Under the pieces are notes generated by a model that ran no database searches, had not been told where the DNA came from, and saw only the letters and a list, made by a program, of their open reading frames with translations. This document shows, in pieces, positions 1 through 31,934 of a stretch of 58,852 nt of DNA. The stretch is taken from contig JAGWIS010000002.1 in the NCBI GenBank assembly GCA_028866135.1, positions 1-58,852 on the forward strand. Direction: 5' to 3'. The position numbers were made by a program, and so were the translations under genes. How positions within the stretch are numbered: position 1 is the first letter of the stretch; every line of letters starts with the position of its first letter. The DNA comes from Patescibacteria group bacterium. GTDB lineage: Bacteria; Patescibacteriota; Minisyncoccia; Phycocordibacterales; Phycocordibacteraceae.

Positions 1-16
1 TTTTTCATGGGGTATA

Positions 17-75
17 CCCAGTGAGATAAAAACTCTCGGGCGCACAACATAGCGAATAAGAGACATCTCATGGGG
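17..75. repeat. Short hairpin element, a variant of the CCCCRTGAGATAA / TTATCTCAYGGGG inverted-repeat family. Its right arm contains the ATG of the SDR gene.
   Basis: CCCAGTGAGATAA at 17-29 pairs with CATCTCATGGGG at 64-75. A 13-nt direct repeat TCATGGGGTATAC occurs at 5-17 and 68-80. Confidence 0.35.
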
Positions 76-867
76 TATACTTTCCGCATGGAACAGAAAC
101 CGATTTCCGAACTCATGAGCCTCTCGGGGAAGTCCGTGATCGTGACGGGCGGCGCGATGGGCATCGGCTTTGCGATTGCGAGTCGGCTCGCGGAAGCGGG
201 GGCGAAGGTGCTTGTTGCGGATAAGGACGCGGCCGCCGCGGAAGCGGCGGCCGCGAAGATCGGCGGAGCCGCGATATCCGTCGACGTTTCGGAGGGAGCG
301 CAGGTGGAGGCGATGGTCGCCAAAGCAGTTGCGGAGTTCGGCGGCGTCGACATTCTCGTCAATAACGCCGGCATCTATCCGCAGAAGCTCGTGATGGACT
401 CGACAAAGGAAGATTTCGAAAAGATTGTCCACGTAAATCTCATGGGCGCATTCTTTGCGGCGAAAGCCGCGGCGAAGCAGATGATCGCGCAGGGCAGGGG
501 CGGCAAGATCATCAACATCACTTCAGTCGATGCACTCCACCCATCCTCGACCGGCCTCGCTTTCTACGATGCGTCAAAGCACGGCCTCTGGGGCTTCACG
601 AAGAATCTCGCGCTCGAGCTCGCCCTGCACAAGATCTGGGTGAACGCGATTGCCCCGGGCGGCGTCGCCACTCCTGGGACGGGGCTCGGCAAGCCCGTCG
701 ACCCCGCGTTTGCGGCTCTGATGGAACCGTTTATGAAAAAGATCCCGATGCACCGCATGGCGGATGCGGATGAAATTGGGAAAGTCGCGCTCTTCCTCGC
801 TTCCGACCTCTCGTCCTACATGACCGGCTCGCAGGTCGTCGTCGACGGCGGTGTTCTTCTTGCGTAA
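70..867 (+). CDS. SDR-family oxidoreductase (3-oxoacyl-ACP reductase-like)
   Basis: TGGAMGIG Rossmann motif, NNAG, and the catalytic YDASK (YxxxK) motif; 265 aa. Confidence 0.9.
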   Translation: MGYTFRMEQKPISELMSLSGKSVIVTGGAMGIGFAIASRLAEAGAKVLVADKDAAAAEAAAAKIGGAAISVDVSEGAQVEAMVAKAVAEFGGVDILVNNAGIYPQKLVMDSTKEDFEKIVHVNLMGAFFAAKAAAKQMIAQGRGGKIINITSVDALHPSSTGLAFYDASKHGLWGFTKNLALELALHKIWVNAIAPGGVATPGTGLGKPVDPAFAALMEPFMKKIPMHRMADADEIGKVALFLASDLSSYMTGSQVVVDGGVLLA

Positions 868-3768: not shown

Positions 3769-4299
3769 CTAGCGGGAGGCGCTCTTTCTGAAAGGAGCGG
3801 CGAGATCTTCCGATGGAACAATCTTTTCCGGAGGCAGGAGATACGTGGCACGTCGGCCTTCAATCAAAACGATTTTAACTGGCTCCCGGTGAAGCTCGAC
3901 TTCGCCGACGAGATTGCCGTTCTCGACGCGGATCCCCGACGAGGCAGGGAGGCGCTCGAGAAGGGAACGAAGGAGAGTGTCGATTGCGCCGACGGGTCCC
4001 CACAGCTCAAGGACCATCCAGAAGCTGACCTTCCGGCCGCTGATGTCCACGATAAGCACGCGGGCCTCAAACGGCTTTCGGTTCACGAATGAAATTGCGG
4101 CGTACTTCGCCACGCTCTCTTTCATGAGTTTCGGCGTCAGTCGCCCAAGAGCGCAGTCGTACTTTTCTGCCGCAAGCCGGGTCACGGCTGCGTAGAGGGC
4201 GACGTCTGCTCCGGGGAGACTGTTGGAACTCACTTCGATGTCCAGGATTTCCGAGAGGAGTCCTGGCGAGGCCGCGCGGGCCTGCTTTATTCGGGCCAT
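3769..4299 (-). CDS. Hypothetical protein. Start chosen at MARIKQ, which follows an AAGGAGG Shine-Dalgarno site.
   Basis: Open frame with an SD site 5 nt upstream of the ATG at 4299 and a hairpin plus T-run just downstream. No motif was recognised. Confidence 0.55.
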   Translation of the reverse strand: MARIKQARAASPGLLSEILDIEVSSNSLPGADVALYAAVTRLAAEKYDCALGRLTPKLMKESVAKYAAISFVNRKPFEARVLIVDISGRKVSFWMVLELWGPVGAIDTLLRSLLERLPASSGIRVENGNLVGEVELHREPVKIVLIEGRRATYLLPPEKIVPSEDLAAPFRKSASR

Positions 4300-4470
4300 G
4301 CCGCCTCCTTGGTTAAGGGTTGTACTGCCTGGCCCGAGCCTATTCTTTTTGCAGATGCGAGTCAAGCAAAAATCGCCGAAAGGCGATTTTTGCTTAGACC
4401 TCTTTGGTCCTTATTAAAGAGAAGAGCAGACATTTCACGATGTCTGCTCTTCGATAAACTCTTGGAGCTT

Positions 4471-4794
4471 TCATGTTCTGGGATGCAAGATGACAACGTT
4501 GGGTTCTGTGTTTCGATCGTCGATCTTCAGACATTCCCATGTTACAGAGTAACCGACAGCTTCATAAAGTTCTTTGAGAAGCTGGCGAACGGTGTCGCCA
4601 ACTTTTTCCGATAGATCGAATACGTTGAGGCCCCACTGGTCTGAAACTGTTCCGAAGTGCGAGCGATGCGGAAACGTAAGGGCATCATCAATCGTCTGTT
4701 CGCCCCTCCGTATCATTTCTTGTACCTTTGTCGGTTGTTCGGCGATCTTTCGCCGTACATACAGGACTGGCCATTCATTAGGTGAAAGAGCCAT
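4471..4794 (-). CDS. Hypothetical protein (107 aa)
   Basis: Open frame in an AT-richer segment, followed by the hairpin AGCAAAAATCGCC-GAAA-GGCGATTTTTGCT. No motif was recognised. Confidence 0.5.
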   Translation of the reverse strand: MALSPNEWPVLYVRRKIAEQPTKVQEMIRRGEQTIDDALTFPHRSHFGTVSDQWGLNVFDLSEKVGDTVRQLLKELYEAVGYSVTWECLKIDDRNTEPNVVILHPRT

Positions 4795-4922
4795 GATTTT
4801 TCCTTTCGGTTAAGAGTTGGATGCTTTTCTGTAACAGACTCTAGCATTTCTTATACATAATCACAAATATATAAAAACACCTCGTTTCCGAGGCATTTTT
4901 ATTCTTCCATATCGTTCTACGT

Positions 4923-5386
4923 TGGTGGAGGTGTCGAGAGTCGAACTCGAGTCCGAATCCGTCTATGAAAGCGAGTCTACGACGCATAGTCAGCGTTAGT
5001 GTCTGAGGCAGGGTGCGAGGAACGCAGACGAAACCACTCCTGCCCGATCCCCTAGAACATGCCTTTCGGCATGTTCGGGCGAACATTTGCAAAGCAAATG
5101 TTTTAGCCATTCTTTTGCCAGGAAGGGTGCCCGGCAGCATATTCTGCAGATAATTCCGCCCATCCCTCCTGCTGCAGAAACCAGGGAGGATGAACGTCGC
5201 GCAGGCGAAGAGCCGTTAGGCTGCCGCGTACGCGAACGCGAAGTCACGCATACCGAAGTACGGGGACTTCACGCTTGCAAGAGTGTTCTTGGCAAGTTTG
5301 GGTGCTCGTTGGATTTGGAGTGTCATACGAGCGTGCACTGCGTCGCACGTCTTTCAAGGAACAGACCGTCAAAGCCGGTCACCCCC
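4923..5386 (-). ncRNA. ssrA: tmRNA (SsrA)
   Basis: On the minus strand the 5' end reads GGGGGUGACCGGCUUUGACGG. The 3' end reads GGACUCGAGUUCGACUCUCGACACCUCCACCA, giving a T-arm and an acceptor stem with a G3:U70 pair. An internal tag frame ends ...DFAFAYAAA-TAA (stop at 5218-5216). smpB lies upstream on the same strand. Confidence 0.85.
5049..5109. repeat. 61-nt two-hairpin repeat inside the tmRNA; a copy of the 3' part of the GIY-YIG element at 5384-5445
   Basis: The sequence cccctagaacatgccttYcggcatgttcgggcgaacattt...aaatgttttagcca is shared by both copies. The second hairpin differs by compensatory changes. Confidence 0.7.
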
Positions 5387-28319: not shown

Positions 28320-28408
28320 CATCTGCTTTGTTGCGGGTACCCGCCGATTTCTTCCGTCGTACCACGTAAGTACGCCTCCAGAAATCGGCTGCCCGCGCCG
28401 CGCATCTG
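28320..28408. repeat. Intergenic copy of the ~88-nt palindromic repeat found inside recG
   Basis: See 10662-10749. Flanked by AAAAAGCAC / GTGCTTTTT arms directly after the nrdJ stop. Confidence 0.7.
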
Positions 28409-28502
28409 AGTGCTTTTTATTCGCTCCGGGGTTCGCATTGTCGTACAAGTTTCGCGCCTCCGAGAGCCTCCGAAATCACCCTTGCCGCTTCTTTGTGAAT
28501 CC

Positions 28503-28521
28503 TACAAGGTTCGACCTTGTA
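28503..28521. repeat. TACAAGGTTCGACCTTGTA palindrome, intergenic copy
   Basis: 8-bp stem with a 3-nt loop. The same core occurs inside recG and tsaD. Confidence 0.7.
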
Positions 28522-28533
28522 AGGGGGAGATAA

Positions 28534-28565
28534 GCGAAAACCCACGCAGGAGCGTGGGTTTTCGC
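28534..28565 (-). terminator. Hairpin terminator downstream of rnpB
   Basis: 14-bp stem GCGAAAACCCACGC-UCCU-GCGUGGGUUUUCGC on the minus strand, followed by a U-rich tract. Confidence 0.6.
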
Positions 28566-28604
28566 ATTTGTGTGGACCGAGTCGGTAAGCCGAATTCTGT
28601 CTTG

Positions 28605-28700
28605 CCCCGTGAGATAGTCCATCTCGATTTCCATTAACATCTCGAAATCCTTTGCAGGCTCTCGGGTGCAACAGTTATCAATCGGTCTTATCTCATGGGG
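28605..28700. repeat. 96-nt hairpin insert in rnpB (copy 3)
   Basis: Termini CCCCGTGAGATA / TTATCTCATGGGG with internal ATCTCGATTTC...CTCGAAATCC. Confidence 0.75.
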
Positions 28701-28753
28701 CGGGGACGATCATTTATCTGGGCCCGCAATTGCTTGCGAGCTCGAGCGGCACT

Positions 28754-28849
28754 GCCCATGAGATAACCTTATTTCGATTTCAATCAGCCTCTCGAAATCC
28801 GTTAGGTTCTCAAGCGCTGATATAATCTCAACAGTTTTATCTCACGGGC
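28754..28849. repeat. 96-nt hairpin insert in rnpB (copy 2, at the P12 position)
   Basis: Termini GCCCATGAGATAA / TTATCTCACGGGC with internal ATTTCGATTTC...CTCGAAATCC. Colinear with copy 3. Confidence 0.75.
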
Positions 28850-29009
28850 CACGGCCTTGCATGCGGGTAAGGATTTATTCGTTGCACTTCTCCAGTTGCC
28901 TGGAGAACTCATCCCGCCCGAGGGCGGGATGCTCCGCGCTTTCGCTTGGGAGCGTCTCTGTAGGCACCTCTATCCTTGCGGACGACGGGCGTTACCCGCT
29001 ACCTTTCTA

Positions 29010-29105
29010 CCCCATGGGATAACAAATCTCGAAGCAAGTGAAATAGTGAATACTCATCAAACATTTCGATTTCACTCCCACCTCCAGACCTCTTATCCCA
29101 CGGGG
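29010..29105. repeat. 96-nt hairpin insert in rnpB (copy 1; interior inverted relative to copies 2 and 3)
   Basis: Termini CCCCATGGGATAA / TTATCCCACGGGG with internal AAATCTCGAAG...ATTTCGATTTC. Confidence 0.7.
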
Positions 29106-29124
29106 TGCATGTTCGGACTTTCCT

Positions 29125-29402
29125 CCCCGTGAGATAACTACTCACTATTCTGTATACGCGTTTTTAAGTATCTCTTGCCCCAAGCAGTTTTCAGGTAGCG
29201 CTCTCGTGCGAGCGCATCCTTCTTAGATAAGGACGCCTCGTAATAAACAAGTCGCCACGGGCCTCTCGATTTTGTTGCTAACGACCTTCCGTCTCGATGT
29301 TCTTCAAAACGTCTCTTAAGGTCGCCAGTCGAGCCGATGTAAAACTGCTTGGGGCCCCTGAGTACATATACGTAGTGCATACTGAGCAATTATCTCACGG
29401 GG
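29125..29402 (-). mobile_element. 278-nt element bounded by inverted repeats and encoding a GIY-YIG protein, occupying the P3 position of rnpB
   Basis: Perfect 13-nt inverted repeats CCCCGTGAGATAA (29125-29137) and TTATCTCACGGGG (29390-29402). Immediately 5' of AGGAAAGUCC in RNA sense. Confidence 0.6.
29138..29380 (-). CDS. GIY-YIG (URI-domain only) nuclease family protein
   Basis: MHYVYVLRG...FYIGSTGDLKRRFEEH...ERYLK. Start taken at the ATG at 29380 (the track TTG is at 29389). Confidence 0.85.
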   Translation of the reverse strand: MHYVYVLRGPKQFYIGSTGDLKRRFEEHRDGRSLATKSRGPWRLVYYEASLSKKDALARERYLKTAWGKRYLKTRIQNSE

Positions 29403-29561
29403 CGATCGTCTGACTCGGTCCGGAAATACTATACCACATCGCGTATGTGCGGTATAGCCCGCGAGAGAAGAGTCTTTTGATGTGTACAACGCGACGAGCT
29501 GCTGCACCCCATGAGGTATACTAAACGGCATTATCATTCAGTAACCGCAACAGAATTTATT

Positions 29562-31934
29562 ATGCCTCCGCAACAGCAGACAGTCGCCCCGCGCAGCCGC
29601 TCGCTTGAGACCATCAGCATCTGGGCGCTCCTCGCCACGCTCGTCGTCGCCATCTTCTTTTTCCTCCCGTCCTCGATTGTCCCGTTTGCAACGACGAAGA
29701 CATTTCTCCTTGCGGCGGGCGCTCTCATCACGCTCGCGCTCTACATCCTCGCGCGTCTCGGCCGGGGGAACGTCATTTTCCCTCCACTCGCGCTCGTCGG
29801 CGCGCTCTGGCTTCCCGTCGTTGCGTATGCCGTTTCAGCGACATTCTCGGGCACGCTCTTTTCGAACGCTTTGTGGGGATCCGCGCTTGAGCCTGACACG
29901 CTCGGCTTCATACTCGTGGCGACGGTTCTCGGAACGCTCTCCGCGCTCGTGCTGCGCCGCCCCGAGCACTATCAGCTGTTCCTGCGCGTCGGCGCGTACG
30001 TCTTCGGCGTACTCACCGCTCTGCAGGCGCTCATCGTCATCATCGGTCAATTCTCTCCGGGCACGGTCTCTCCGGCATTCTCCATTCCGGGCTCCTTCAA
30101 TGACCTCGGCGTGCTTCTAGGATTCGGTGTCATCGGCATCCTCATCACGCTACGATTCCTCGGTCTTTCGGGCCGCACGCGACAGCTCCTCTCCATCGCC
30201 GGCGTCGTGTCGCTCGTCCTGCTTGCGATTGCCAATTCTCCGCTTATTTGGACTCTGATTGCGCTCGTCTCGCTCGGCCTCTTCGTGGAGGCGGTCATGC
30301 AGCGCGGGACGAAGACCGTCGAAAGCGACCTCGATGAAACCGCGATTATGAACGAGACCCCGGTCGAAGCAGGAGAGAGCAGCCACTCGCTCCTCGTGCC
30401 GCTCGCCGTGCTCGCCATCTCGCTCTTTTTCCTCATCGGCGGCACGCTCGGCGACGCGCTCGCGAACGCTCTCCATATAAACATCCTGAACGTCCGTCCT
30501 TCCTGGCAGTCGACGCTCGCGGTCGGGCAAAACGTCTACGCAAGCTCGCCAGTATTTGGCACCGGCCCCGGAACCTTCGGCGTCGAGTGGCTCAAGCATC
30601 GCGACGCGGCCTTAAACGCGACCGTCTTCTGGAACGTCGACTTCTCCTCCGGCATCGGCTTCATTCCGACCTCGCTCGTGACGACCGGCATCGTGGGCAT
30701 CATCGGCTGGCTCGCATTCTTCGGCCTCTTTCTCGTGCTCGGCATGCGCCTCCTCATCTTGCGCGCGCCTCAGGATGCGTTCGCTCGCTACGTCTCGATC
30801 TTCTCGTTCGTCGCGGCCGTCTACTTCTTCGCGGTAACGATCTTTGATCTGCCAAATACGGTCATCATCGCGCTCGCATTCGTCTTCGCCGGCCTCTTCA
30901 TCTCCTCGACACGCTTTGCTGGCGGGGGAGAGCAGTGGGGCATCATCTTCGCGAAGAGCCCGCGACTCGGCTTCGTTATCGTGTTTTTGCTCACGATACT
31001 CCTGCTCGCGTCGGTCGGTGCTGCGTACGCGCTCGTCGGCCGCTACATCGCAGCGTCACAGCTCGCGACCGCAAGCAGCGCCTTTTCCTCCGGCGATCTC
31101 GATGCTGCCGATAAAGCTGCGCAGAACTCCATCGCATTTGCGCCGAGCGCGGCAGCCTATCAGATCGAAGCGGGCATCGCGAGCTCGCGTCTCGACAAGA
31201 TAGCCGTCTCCACCACCATGACGCCGACGGCCGCGCAGCAGGCATTCCAGACGGCGCTCTCGGGAGGCATCAACGCGGCGCTTACGGCGACGCGCATCAC
31301 GCCGTCCGACTACCAGAACTGGCTCGCGCTCGGGAATCTCTACAGCAAAGCGGTGCCGCTCGGGGTCGCGGGCGCCTACGACAGCGCGAAAACCGCCTAC
31401 CAAAAGGCGCAAGCGCTCAATCCGACGAATCCGCAGATTCCGTACATCCTCGCGCAGCTCGACATCGCGAACAAGAACATCAAAGGAGCGGAAGACAATC
31501 TGAAGACCGCGATCACGCTCAAGCAGGACTACACGGCCGCCATCTTCCTCCTCTCGCAGCTTGAAGTGCAGGACGGAAACGTGAAGGATGCCCTCGCCGC
31601 CGCCCTCGCCGCCGCGTACTTCACGCCGAACGACCCGAACATCCTCTTCCAGGTCGGCATCCTGCGCGCGGCGACGAACGACTTCGCGGGTGCTATCGTC
31701 GCTCTCTCCTCGGCAATTACGGTGAATCCGCAATTCGCGAACGCCCGCTACTTCCTCTCGGCCGTCTACGCGAAGCAGGGCGACTTCAAGAGCGCGGCCG
31801 CGCAGATGCAAGCCATCGCGGACATGTCGGCCGACAACGCGCACATGGTCGCCTCGCAGCTCGCTGCGCTTTCGGCAGGCAAGAATCCGTTCCCCGCGAA
31901 TCTCCTCTCCGTCTCTCCGGCGCCCGTCAAATAG
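29562..31934 (+). CDS. O-antigen ligase (Wzy_C)-like polytopic membrane protein with C-terminal TPR repeats
   Basis: At least 10 transmembrane segments and a C-terminal roughly 300 aa of TPR-like repeats (YQKAQALNPTNPQ, LKTAITLKQDYTAA, NARYFLSAVYAKQGDF). Confidence 0.7.
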   Translation: MPPQQQTVAPRSRSLETISIWALLATLVVAIFFFLPSSIVPFATTKTFLLAAGALITLALYILARLGRGNVIFPPLALVGALWLPVVAYAVSATFSGTLFSNALWGSALEPDTLGFILVATVLGTLSALVLRRPEHYQLFLRVGAYVFGVLTALQALIVIIGQFSPGTVSPAFSIPGSFNDLGVLLGFGVIGILITLRFLGLSGRTRQLLSIAGVVSLVLLAIANSPLIWTLIALVSLGLFVEAVMQRGTKTVESDLDETAIMNETPVEAGESSHSLLVPLAVLAISLFFLIGGTLGDALANALHINILNVRPSWQSTLAVGQNVYASSPVFGTGPGTFGVEWLKHRDAALNATVFWNVDFSSGIGFIPTSLVTTGIVGIIGWLAFFGLFLVLGMRLLILRAPQDAFARYVSIFSFVAAVYFFAVTIFDLPNTVIIALAFVFAGLFISSTRFAGGGEQWGIIFAKSPRLGFVIVFLLTILLLASVGAAYALVGRYIAASQLATASSAFSSGDLDAADKAAQNSIAFAPSAAAYQIEAGIASSRLDKIAVSTTMTPTAAQQAFQTALSGGINAALTATRITPSDYQNWLALGNLYSKAVPLGVAGAYDSAKTAYQKAQALNPTNPQIPYILAQLDIANKNIKGAEDNLKTAITLKQDYTAAIFLLSQLEVQDGNVKDALAAALAAAYFTPNDPNILFQVGILRAATNDFAGAIVALSSAITVNPQFANARYFLSAVYAKQGDFKSAAAQMQAIADMSADNAHMVASQLAALSAGKNPFPANLLSVSPAPVK

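Follow-up and report, generated by a model that had tools for sequence, protein, structure and literature searches.

Hairpin repeats and a small GIY-YIG nuclease gene in peripheral helices of a Parcubacterial RNase P RNA gene

The gene described here, for the RNA of the tRNA-trimming ribozyme RNase P (rnpB) in a CPR bacterium with a tiny genome, carries four inserts, and the one that forms its P3 helix encloses an intact open reading frame (ORF) for an 80-aa GIY-YIG protein. We think that this is probably a nuclease and hairpin system of the REP/RAYT or Ssn kind sitting in rnpB, with its copies as inert helix extensions, and that the gene is a working type A RNase P RNA gene of a Kaiserbacteria-like Parcubacterium, its activity being predicted. 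One hairpin repeat family occupies four peripheral positions in the gene: P3, the P5/P7 junction, P16/17 and P19. By the window we mean the whole stretch of DNA that was analysed, 58,852 nt of contig JAGWIS010000002.1. The gene and its core parts are located as follows.

28574..29421, minus strand: rnpB, type A RNase P RNA, about 848 nt including four inserts; identified by RF00010 match, conserved blocks and P1/P2 covariation
29412..29421, minus strand: P1 5' strand GGACCGAGUC; perfect pairing with 28574-28583, compensatory changes in relatives
28574..28583, minus strand: P1 3' strand GACUCGGUCC; gives a 10-bp P1 with 100% complementarity to 29412-29421
29404..29410, minus strand: P2 5' strand GACGAUC; pairs with 28705-28711, duplex -11.3 kcal/mol
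28705..28711, minus strand: P2 3' strand GAUCGUC; partner of 29404-29410
29115..29124, minus strand: P4 5' strand AGGAAAGUCC; from sequence reading and covariance model alignment
28584..28600, minus strand: P4 3' strand with J4/1, ACAGAAUUCGGCUUACC; from sequence reading and covariance model alignment
29428..29436, minus strand: extended -10-like box TGgTATAGT, 6 nt upstream of P1; read from the sequence
28534..28565, minus strand: probable terminator, a 14-bp G+C-rich hairpin directly 3' of P1

The RF00010 covariance model (CM) matched the region with an E-value of 2.4e-14 and 50.6 bits and aligned P4, P8-P15 and P18, with P12, P13 and P14 present and ordinary. Because inserts are present, the 5' part of the gene was misaligned. 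The gathering score of the model, 100 bits, was not reached in the window, nor at locus L002 (86.5 bits). We attribute these scores to the inserts and to CPR divergence, the latter effect being one already described: reduced CM scores are usual among CPR RNase P RNAs (PMC8172020). Pairing in both P1 and P2 is kept in 13/13 relatives despite differing sequences, which is covariation, and TATAAT-like -10 boxes stand at the same place just 5' of P1 in relatives. A consensus promoter scan upstream of rnpB found no full sigma-70 site.

A preliminary description of this DNA, made by reading its letters, had proposed an rnpB of about 850 nt closed by a 10-bp terminal pairing, a 278-nt P3 segment bounded by perfect 13-nt inverted repeats, an intact 80-aa GIY-YIG ORF in the sense of the RNA, and three 96-nt hairpin inserts. 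We recovered all of these, and each of the three hairpins folds (z -5.4 to -8.7). The conserved P4 strands and universal blocks (AGGAAAGUCC, GGUAACGCC and ACAGAAUUCGGCUUA) lie where that description had put them, in canonical order, and both the P1/P2 pairing and the -10 box set the RNA 5' end upstream of the ORF, also as it had supposed. One placement was wrong: a 96-nt hairpin had been assigned to P12, but P12-P14 are ordinary in the CM alignment and the inserts are at J5/7, P16/17 and P19. The inserts, and a further copy of the family in the window, are listed below.

29125..29402, minus strand: P3, a 278-nt hairpin element enclosing the ORF; the stem is perfect over 13 bp and reaches about 20 bp when wobble pairs are counted
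29138..29380, minus strand: ORF for an 80-aa single-domain GIY-YIG nuclease (UPF0213/Slx1/Ssn-like); PF01541, E 3.7e-13
29341..29355, minus strand: 5' arm of an internal 15-bp helix (codons P-K-Q-F-Y); perfect inverted repeat with 29177-29191
29177..29191, minus strand: 3' arm of the internal helix (codons K-T-A-W-G); pairs with 29341-29355
29010..29105, minus strand: 96-nt ORF-less hairpin at the P5/P7 junction (P5.1-like), -47.5 kcal/mol, z -6.8; precedes UAGAAAGGUAGCGGGUAAC (P7/P8)
28754..28849, minus strand: 96-nt ORF-less hairpin at P16/P17, -43.8 kcal/mol, z -8.7; the CM aligns its stem to P16/17
28605..28700, minus strand: 96-nt ORF-less hairpin at P19, between the 3' strands of P2 and P4, -34.8 kcal/mol, z -5.4
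1..80, no strand given: tandem units between genes, also of this hairpin family and flanked by GTATAC; the window edge truncates the first of them

The inverted repeats that bound the P3 element extend to 24 nt at 88%, and the rod as a whole has a fold energy of -123.5 kcal/mol (z -9.8). The ORF lies between P2 and P4, and the basal part of the P3 stem contains both its start and its stop codon. The chief domain of its protein is PF01541, with a borderline, overlapping match to T5orf172. AlphaFold2 models a compact GIY-YIG fold (pLDDT 91.7) whose best PDB matches are 1zg2 (UPF0213) and Slx1 7cq3. We retrieved 342 homologues. All of the catalytic residues are retained, and nothing follows the catalytic domain.

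Translation of the ORF is uncertain, since the stem buries its start codon and a clear Shine-Dalgarno sequence is absent. Having no promoter of its own, the ORF must be transcribed within the rnpB transcript, and the transcript would therefore be ribozyme and mRNA in one.

We found the same arrangement, with the ORF in P3, in 17 independent Parcubacteria assemblies from different projects. The ORF is intact in 17/17 rnpB copies at 65-83% identity, and the rnpB-borne ORFs form one clade in a neighbour-joining tree. A Mantel test of ORF distances against rnpB-core distances gave r 0.03, an uninformative value that probably reflects saturation and noise in the core alignment. These distances are uncorrelated and so do not bear out strict vertical descent. 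As a test of descent we replaced this comparison with GC3 tracking: the GC3 of the ORF correlates with the GC of its host flanks (r 0.80, p 2e-4). We take the P3 insertion to be old and mostly vertical within one clade, with the qualification just given, and not a recent invasion. A random sample of 120 other rnpB genes from metagenomes, all sharing this P4 motif, contained neither the module nor the ORF, and the arrangement is therefore restricted to a clade and not a general CPR trait. Two short ORF contigs (L206 and L207) were considered as assembled transcripts and rejected. Both run on for 450-630 nt upstream and end within rnpB, so they are genomic contigs that broke at the repeats.

Both the fold of P3 and its coding sequence show constraint. 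Across 16 genomes the synonymous sites in the ORF-internal helix are frozen; in its 3' arm the codons ACT and GCT are used in 16/16 genomes, as against 3-5 codons at other invariant residues. At the base of P3, pairs 17/265, 18/264 and 19/263 have 9, 8 and 6 double changes in the 16 genomes, and pair 16/266 is G.U in 12/16. These patterns indicate that the P3 RNA fold is under selection, as in our account the protein is too, and that the internal helix reflects an RNA or single-stranded DNA constraint on synonymous sites.

What happens to the inserts in the RNA could differ from simple retention. RNase III might cut them from the precursor without religation, as happens with intervening sequences (IVSs), leaving a fragmented but base-paired RNase P RNA and releasing the P3 loop as a small mRNA with its start codon now exposed. 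The stems of 13-20 bp, perfect or nearly so, and the position of start and stop codons at the stem base would suit this, and P1, P2 and the base of P3 could jointly hold two fragments together. ORF-bearing rRNA IVSs and the non-intron GIY-YIG inserts of CPR rRNA genes are precedents (PMC11270868). However, the internal helices and bulges do not look like clear RNase III sites, and we judge this fate unlikely. It concerns the RNA only and is compatible at the DNA level with a nuclease and hairpin system in rnpB.

The three 96-nt hairpins have a common 12-13-nt stem with the P3 rod, and the ORF-bearing and ORF-less units have their termini alone in common. Within the 0.85-kb rnpB the terminus CCCRTGRGATAA occurs exactly 8 times. 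With at most one mismatch it has 10 matches in the whole window, where 0.61 would be expected from shuffles. The P16/17 and P19 copies have a 33-nt internal segment that is 82% identical. The hairpin at the P5/P7 junction has an orthologous hairpin in locus L006, and the one at P16/17 has an orthologous hairpin in L007. Among close relatives the positions of hairpins in rnpB differ. At L002 a single base separates the P13 hairpin from the P19 hairpin, and in L014 and L015 the hairpin copies are near-identical within each rnpB gene; hairpin copying within rnpB thus looks recent, to go by these likenesses.

The family is also found outside rnpB. The units at 1-80 of the window fold with z -6.2, and CAYGGGGTATAC is matched 5 times in the window, where 0.12 matches would be expected; at locus L020, ORF-less hairpin copies lie between genes. 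More widely, the same inverted repeat goes with this small GIY-YIG subfamily in many phyla: the ORF lies between inverted-repeat arms of 11 nt or more in 38/57 loci, compared with 1/57 shuffled controls, with variant repeats in other clades. The sequence of the stem itself, beyond its pairing, is conserved from CPR to Verrucomicrobia. The unit of repeat and ORF is also found in organisms where it has no link to rnpB, both in intergenic positions and within protein-coding genes. In Verrucomicrobia the element lies in frame inside a DUF1016 coding gene, and the host frame is open across it. Relatives' copies were considered for a location in rRNA or other known RNAs, which we rejected: an Rfam scan showed only unrelated tRNA and tmRNA genes nearby, and at Rfam gathering thresholds none of the 36 scanned loci of relatives was in an rRNA gene. 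The hairpin arms of the family are written CCCCGTGAGATAA...TTATCTCACGGGG.

Direct repeats (TATA, TATAA, TTATA, TGAA or TTCA) border some intergenic copies and many others are without them; at the rnpB copies we found no target-site duplication. Terminal inverted repeats common to ORF-bearing and ORF-less copies, by which MITEs are matched with an autonomous partner, are present here. The preliminary description had suggested an autonomous and miniature mobile family. Its common termini, the association of repeat and nuclease and the dispersed copies all bear this out, but the P3 insertion appears old, and the mobility of the element is something that we infer from sequence comparison.

Taken together, we favor the following account as the probable one. 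The hairpin family would belong to a small single-domain GIY-YIG nuclease whose gene sits in the loop of one of the hairpins, here P3. By analogy with Ssn, the nuclease may recognise the conserved stem CCCCGTGAGATA/TATCTCACGGGG on folded single-stranded DNA, and its nicks may then drive hairpin copying and gene conversion. Copies would persist in a ribozyme gene because each folds on itself and lengthens a solvent-exposed helix, and for that reason no splicing would be needed and the inserts would stay in the mature RNA. The P3 copy would have entered once, in the ancestor of a Parcubacteria clade, and been inherited since.

A stronger claim is possible, which we put forward tentatively and regard as somewhat doubtful. 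Hairpin and GIY-YIG gene together might be a distinct selfish element that lives as a self-closing helix without splicing, with the rnpB transcript as the only mRNA of the nuclease in this clade. The sites in question would be P3, J5/7, P13, P16/17 and P19 of rnpB and the in-frame site in Verrucomicrobial DUF1016. The nuclease may be selfish or domesticated, and the ribozyme transcript may double as its messenger RNA.

Domestication could also have gone further, into a ribonucleoprotein. The CCCCGUGAGAU stems would then be RNA binding sites for a lineage-specific protein, possibly the GIY-YIG protein encoded in P3, acting as a cofactor or assembly factor of RNase P. The preservation of the ORF in every rnpB copy, the conservation of stem sequence as far as Verrucomicrobia and wobble pairs that fit the sense strand are all consistent with this. 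In the sampled flanks of the rnpB clade we found no hairpins outside rnpB, with an exact-arm pattern scan that missed the degenerate copy at 1-80 as well, and such confinement would equally fit a function tied to RNase P. Against it, repeat and ORF units are intergenic or in protein-coding genes where rnpB is uninvolved, the window has its own intergenic copy, the catalytic residues are all retained, hairpin positions vary among close relatives, and characterised Ssn enzymes do not bind RNA (PMC11893778). We consider such a role quite improbable.

Removal of the inserts with religation, as in introns that self-splice or are assisted by proteins, seems very improbable to us. GIY-YIG ORFs are common in group I introns, and the Verrucomicrobial element inside a coding gene could suggest splicing, but there the host frame is open across the element. 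The preliminary description had seen no group I or group II hallmarks, and indeed no intron covariance model matched in 28400-29600 up to E 10. Only about 35 nt of the element are non-coding, too few to make a ribozyme core. Exact excision would leave the RNA with no P3 at all, since P3 is formed by the stem of the element itself, and the CPR rRNA inserts that bear GIY-YIG ORFs are likewise not introns (PMC11270868). We also rejected a homing endonuclease of the I-TevI type: at 80 aa there is no separate DNA-binding domain, and TIGR01453 scores 19.4 bits against a cut-off of 56.

We give next to no weight to a decayed pseudogene or assembly artefact, in which case a second rnpB or a protein-only HARP at another locus would supply the true RNase P. 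The gene does fall short of the CM gathering threshold and contigs often break within rnpB, but CPR RNase P RNAs commonly score low (PMC8172020), the core blocks are preserved intact with P1, P2 and P3 covarying, and the architecture recurs in all 17 independent assemblies.

A gene long kept in the P3 helix, with coding and fold selected together, would be a rare natural case of a ribozyme that is also an mRNA. Systems of the Ssn type would then reach into CPR bacteria, with helices of structural RNAs as a niche that is new for them. That an insert which folds on itself is nearly harmless suggests why such repeats spread. The inserts lower CM scores and break assemblies, which is part of the reason why rnpB genes are apparently missing from CPR genomes. 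The stem CCCCGTGAGATA offers a candidate recognition site for an Ssn-like enzyme of new specificity.

In the literature that we searched, by subject and by the terminus sequence, no paper described this arrangement of a GIY-YIG ORF and palindromic elements inside RNase P RNA. The preliminary description had known of no endonuclease ORF reported inside an RNase P RNA helix. Such lack of precedent holds for RNase P RNA only, since the Ssn nucleases with their SRM repeats and the GIY-YIG inserts of CPR rRNA genes have been described.

The more distant comparisons each match in part. Like I-TevI and the Seg enzymes, found in group I introns and as free-standing phage genes, the protein has the GIY-YIG fold, keeps the catalytic residues and goes with insertions in conserved genes; unlike them it has no DNA-binding domain in its 80 aa, no intron and no phage context. 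REP/BIME sequences with RAYT are also short palindromic repeats spread over a genome and accompanying one repeat-flanked gene, but the RAYT enzyme has an HUH/Y1 fold where here we have a GIY-YIG fold. Genes tolerate the in-frame insertion of Rickettsia palindromic elements, for which no autonomous partner is known. Some IVSs of bacterial 23S rRNA carry an ORF, 23S_rRNA_IVP (PF05635, a four-helix bundle), and these IVSs are not known to form a dispersed repeat family. In both cases an extended stem-loop replaces the tip of a helix in an essential structural RNA, sometimes with a small ORF, but the ORF of the IVS encodes a four-helix-bundle protein and ours a nuclease. IVSs are also tolerated without religation (summarised in PMC11270868).

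The second precedent is nearer. Tsurumaki et al. 2024 (PMC11270868) described non-intron insertion sequences in the 16S and 23S rRNA genes of CPR bacteria that encode GIY-YIG proteins; the paper cites Brown et al. 2015 for the original report of CPR rRNA insertions. The host group, the GIY-YIG ORF within an insert in a structural RNA gene, the lack of a group I or II intron, and the position at helix tips or bases in less conserved regions are all the same. What differs is the host gene, here RNase P RNA, which is mentioned neither in that paper nor in the Ssn paper (PMC11893778), and that PMC11270868 describes no inverted-repeat termini, ORF-less copies or conservation of RNA fold.

Of the known systems, Ssn and its hairpin repeats come closest. 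In Chenal et al. 2025 (Nat Commun, PMC11893778), Ssn proteins are described as site-specific single-stranded DNA nucleases with SRM/NTS hairpin repeats in an NTS-ssnA-NTS architecture, and the NTS repeats are reported to lie rarely inside genes. The published SRM motif, HGTCWYN(0-2)YYVSBRHN(0-5)WNVSBRGN(0-2)RNCYNB, was absent from the window and occurred twice in the 562 kb of loci from relatives. With hhalign, the profile of our ORF family matched an SRM-flanked Sinorhizobium GIY-YIG protein at 97.7% probability (E 1.6e-12, 44% identity). A tblastn search of plasmids gave 3 weak matches, one of which proved to be SRM-flanked, and a protein search from a gammaproteobacterial relative gave unnamed close matches only and did not reach Neisseria SsnA. 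Both systems have a tiny single-domain GIY-YIG protein (about 80-95 aa for Ssn, 80 aa here), a gene with its own hairpin-forming repeat on either side, further copies of that repeat scattered through the genome, and a pairing of protein and repeat that is kept in different phyla, the architecture resembling that of IS elements or REP/RAYT. The Ssn gene stands between two short hairpins, whereas ours lies in the loop of one long hairpin with helices running through the ORF, and the copies here are in a ribozyme gene and, in Verrucomicrobia, in frame in a protein gene.

Read directly from the sequence, the conserved blocks of the RNase P RNA gene (rnpB) fall on the minus strand exactly where the preliminary description put them, and the 10-bp P1 pairing (29412-29421 with 28574-28583) is perfect. 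In the RF00010 check proposed there, a local scan matches (E 2.4e-14, 50.6 bits) and handles the inserts as insertions, with the 5' end misplaced because the ORF is more than the model can span. Rfam gives no report for this gene at gathering thresholds. One 96-nt hairpin had been thought to replace P12, which is wrong, as the layout makes clear.

Layout of rnpB in the window
29421-29412, minus: P1, 5' strand
29410-29404, minus: P2, 5' strand
29402-29125, minus: P3, formed by the ORF-bearing hairpin
29124-29115, minus: P4, 5' strand, then P5
29105-29010, minus: 96-nt hairpin at the P5/P7 junction
after that hairpin, minus: P7-P14, ordinary in the CM alignment
28849-28754, minus: 96-nt hairpin at P16/17, with P15, then P18
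28711-28705, minus: P2, 3' strand
28700-28605, minus: 96-nt hairpin at the P19 position
28600-28584, minus: P4, 3' strand
28583-28574, minus: P1, 3' strand
28565-28534, minus: 14-bp G+C-rich hairpin, 3' of the P1 3' strand

As first described, perfect inverted repeats of 13 nt bound the 278-nt segment 29125-29402, and its ORF (29380..29138) encodes an 80-aa GIY-YIG protein; the match to PF01541 has E 3.7e-13. AlphaFold2 predicts a confident GIY-YIG fold (pLDDT 91.7); among solved structures, UPF0213 BH0048 and the Slx1 nuclease domain come closest. The GIY, YIG, Arg, His and Glu motif residues show no variation across 60 sequences. Upstream of P1, at a distance of 6 nt, is an extended -10-like box, TGgTATAGT, and relatives have TATAAT-like boxes at the equivalent position. 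From P1 to the ORF start codon there are about 45 nt, filled by P1, P2 and the P3 stem, so there is no room for a promoter of the ORF's own. The ORF is necessarily carried on the rnpB transcript.

At 29503-29521 (plus strand), 85 nt upstream of rnpB, there is a solo arm-like remnant, TGCACCCCATGAGGTATAC. The ATG (29511) of a divergent 807-aa TPR/membrane ORF falls within it, so the protein would start MRYT, just as the element arm CCC-ATG-AGR-TAY is read. In a Zambryskibacteria relative, an IS200-type Y1 transposase gene (PF01797; L002 1341-1970) is directly upstream of an insert-bearing rnpB. The tmRNA gene of the window (4923-5386, minus) measures 464 nt where its model has 374 positions; it contains several insertions of about 40-60 nt each, and no CCCCGTGAGAT termini are present on them.

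At E<=1e-3 the protein collection yields 342 homologues of the protein; nearly all of the 120 best have a length close to 80 aa and 58-83% identity. A scan of one genome per species gave more than 596 relatives. Every relative with at least 65% identity comes from a record of Parcubacteria/Paceibacteria or of another CPR MAG, and several records bear the title 'uncultured Candidatus Saccharibacteria'. The ORF sits in P3 of rnpB, in the same stem, in the window and 16 further loci (17 assemblies). P1 and P2 pair in 13/13 loci with unrelated sequences, and the RNA 5' end therefore lies upstream of the ORF, where it was originally placed. The rnpB-resident ORFs group as a single clade by neighbour joining, sister to a clade of Parcubacterial copies that do not lie in any RNA detected at Rfam gathering thresholds; the copy checked, at locus L020, is intergenic. 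In a sample of 120 rnpB genes from metagenomes that share the P4 motif, all P3 hairpins were ordinary and short, so the ORF-in-P3 arrangement is clade-specific. Third-position GC of the ORF tracks the GC of the host flanks (r 0.80, p 2e-4), which argues for long residence. Comparing rnpB core and ORF distances gave no informative relation. Five contigs (L001, L011, L025, L206, L207) stop 40-260 nt past the ORF, within rnpB. Short-read assembly probably fails at the repeated hairpins, and such breaks may add to the apparent absence of RNase P RNA genes from CPR bins.

The P3 unit of the window folds at -123.5 kcal/mol (z -9.8). In an alignment of 16 P3 elements, pairing in the basal stem is maintained by compensatory changes, with double changes at pairs 17/265 (9), 18/264 (8), 19/263 (6) and 8/281 (3); pair 16/266 is G.U in 12/16. 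Within the ORF, a 15-bp internal helix pairs the P-K-Q-F-Y codons with the K-T-A-W-G codons. Its four-fold degenerate codons are fixed (ACT and GCT, each 16/16), as is AAG (16/16), whereas invariant residues elsewhere in the ORF use 3-5 codons each. The helix is also present in the intergenic copy L020 and differs in other clades of the GIY-YIG subfamily; folding of the whole element therefore belongs to the element itself and not to RNase P. The wobble pairs are compatible with the sense strand, either as RNA or as same-sense single-stranded DNA. In such other clades, loci L031, L037, L052 and L085 (~4071-4085 with 4230-4244) have a perfect 12-15-nt helix, GGAAACGCTTCAG/CTGAAGCGTTTCC, from mid-ORF to the ORF 3' end, and a variant terminal repeat, CCCGTTAGAG.

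The three 96-nt units are indeed hairpins, folding far better than shuffled controls (z -5.4, -8.7 and -6.8). The 12-nt terminus has 8 exact occurrences in the 0.85 kb of rnpB; the window as a whole has 10 matches at <=1 mismatch, against 0.61 expected from shuffles. Apart from the termini, the ORF-less hairpins share nothing with the ORF unit or, across phyla, with one another. In 38/57 loci from many phyla the ORF is flanked by an inverted repeat of 11 nt or more with the conserved core CCCCGT[GT]AG, versus 1/57 shuffled controls. Dispersed intergenic hairpin copies are found at L020 and at 1-80 of the window, where two tandem units with GTATAC flanks, the first truncated by the window edge and one arm degenerate (CCCAGTGAGATAA), lie just upstream of a short-chain-dehydrogenase-like ORF. 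Short direct repeats (TATA, TATAA, TTATA) stand beside some intergenic copies, not consistently.

Hairpin sites in relatives' rnpB vary (J5/7, P13, P16/17, P19). In L002 the P13 and P19 copies differ by 1 base, L014 and L015 likewise hold near-identical copies inside one gene, and the P16/17 and P19 copies of the window are 82% identical over a 33-nt internal segment. Such similarity within one gene points to recent copying or gene conversion. A second, unrelated module with a UUCG loop, GATTYTGC...CCACCTTCGGYGGGCAGAATC, is present at J5/7, P19 or P3 of close relatives' rnpB (L007 ~4275-4395 and ~4770-4805; L006 ~2230-2365; L161, in P3). At these sites the window has the CCCCGTGAGAT module, which makes the helix tips of this gene look like hot spots for exchange. 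Three compact relatives (L009, L013, L016; compare window 29106-29114) have, between P5 and P7, a small P5.1-like hairpin of a sort usually associated with type-B RNase P RNA, and the P5/P7 module of the window sits at this pre-existing position. In Verrucomicrobia (L059 2869-4473, L060 2881-4491, L034, L036, L057), a DUF1016/YhcG-like nuclease gene contains the ORF-bearing element (267-279 nt) along with short hairpins. The host frame is open across the inserts (534-536-aa ORFs in L059 and L060), with the GIY-YIG ORF in another frame; tolerated in-frame insertion could account for this, as could chance in G+C-rich DNA.

The best-supported reading is a repeat system that pairs a nuclease with hairpins, in the manner of Ssn or REP/RAYT. 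rnpB would tolerate its units because each one closes on itself as a helix and extends a peripheral position, and the P3 copy would have been gained once and then retained under selection. Ssn proteins, of about 94 aa with GIY-YIG as their single domain, bind the NTS/SRM hairpin repeat on single-stranded DNA and cut beside it, leaving dsDNA and RNA untouched; their genes are usually repeat-flanked, an architecture likened to IS elements and REP/RAYT (Chenal et al. 2025, PMC11893778). The P3-ORF family shares this logic of a repeat-flanked GIY-YIG gene, and its profile matches a Sinorhizobium GIY-YIG protein (probability 97.7%) on whose flanks we found SRM-type hairpins. However, the repeats of the P3-ORF family do not match the published SRM motif, and its gene lies inside one long hairpin. 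From CPR rRNA genes, 30 GIY-YIG ORFs are reported in inserts that are not introns of group I or group II, in an account from which RNase P is absent (Tsurumaki et al. 2024, PMC11270868). CPR RNase P RNAs have been described as diverged, with extended helices and below model thresholds, and no ORF was noted (Lui et al. 2021, PMC8172020). No relevant paper came up in literature searches on the terminus sequence or on RNase P combined with GIY-YIG. The arrangement in RNase P is not an already described case; it relates to known kinds, and is of clear interest for specialists in RNase P and mobile elements.
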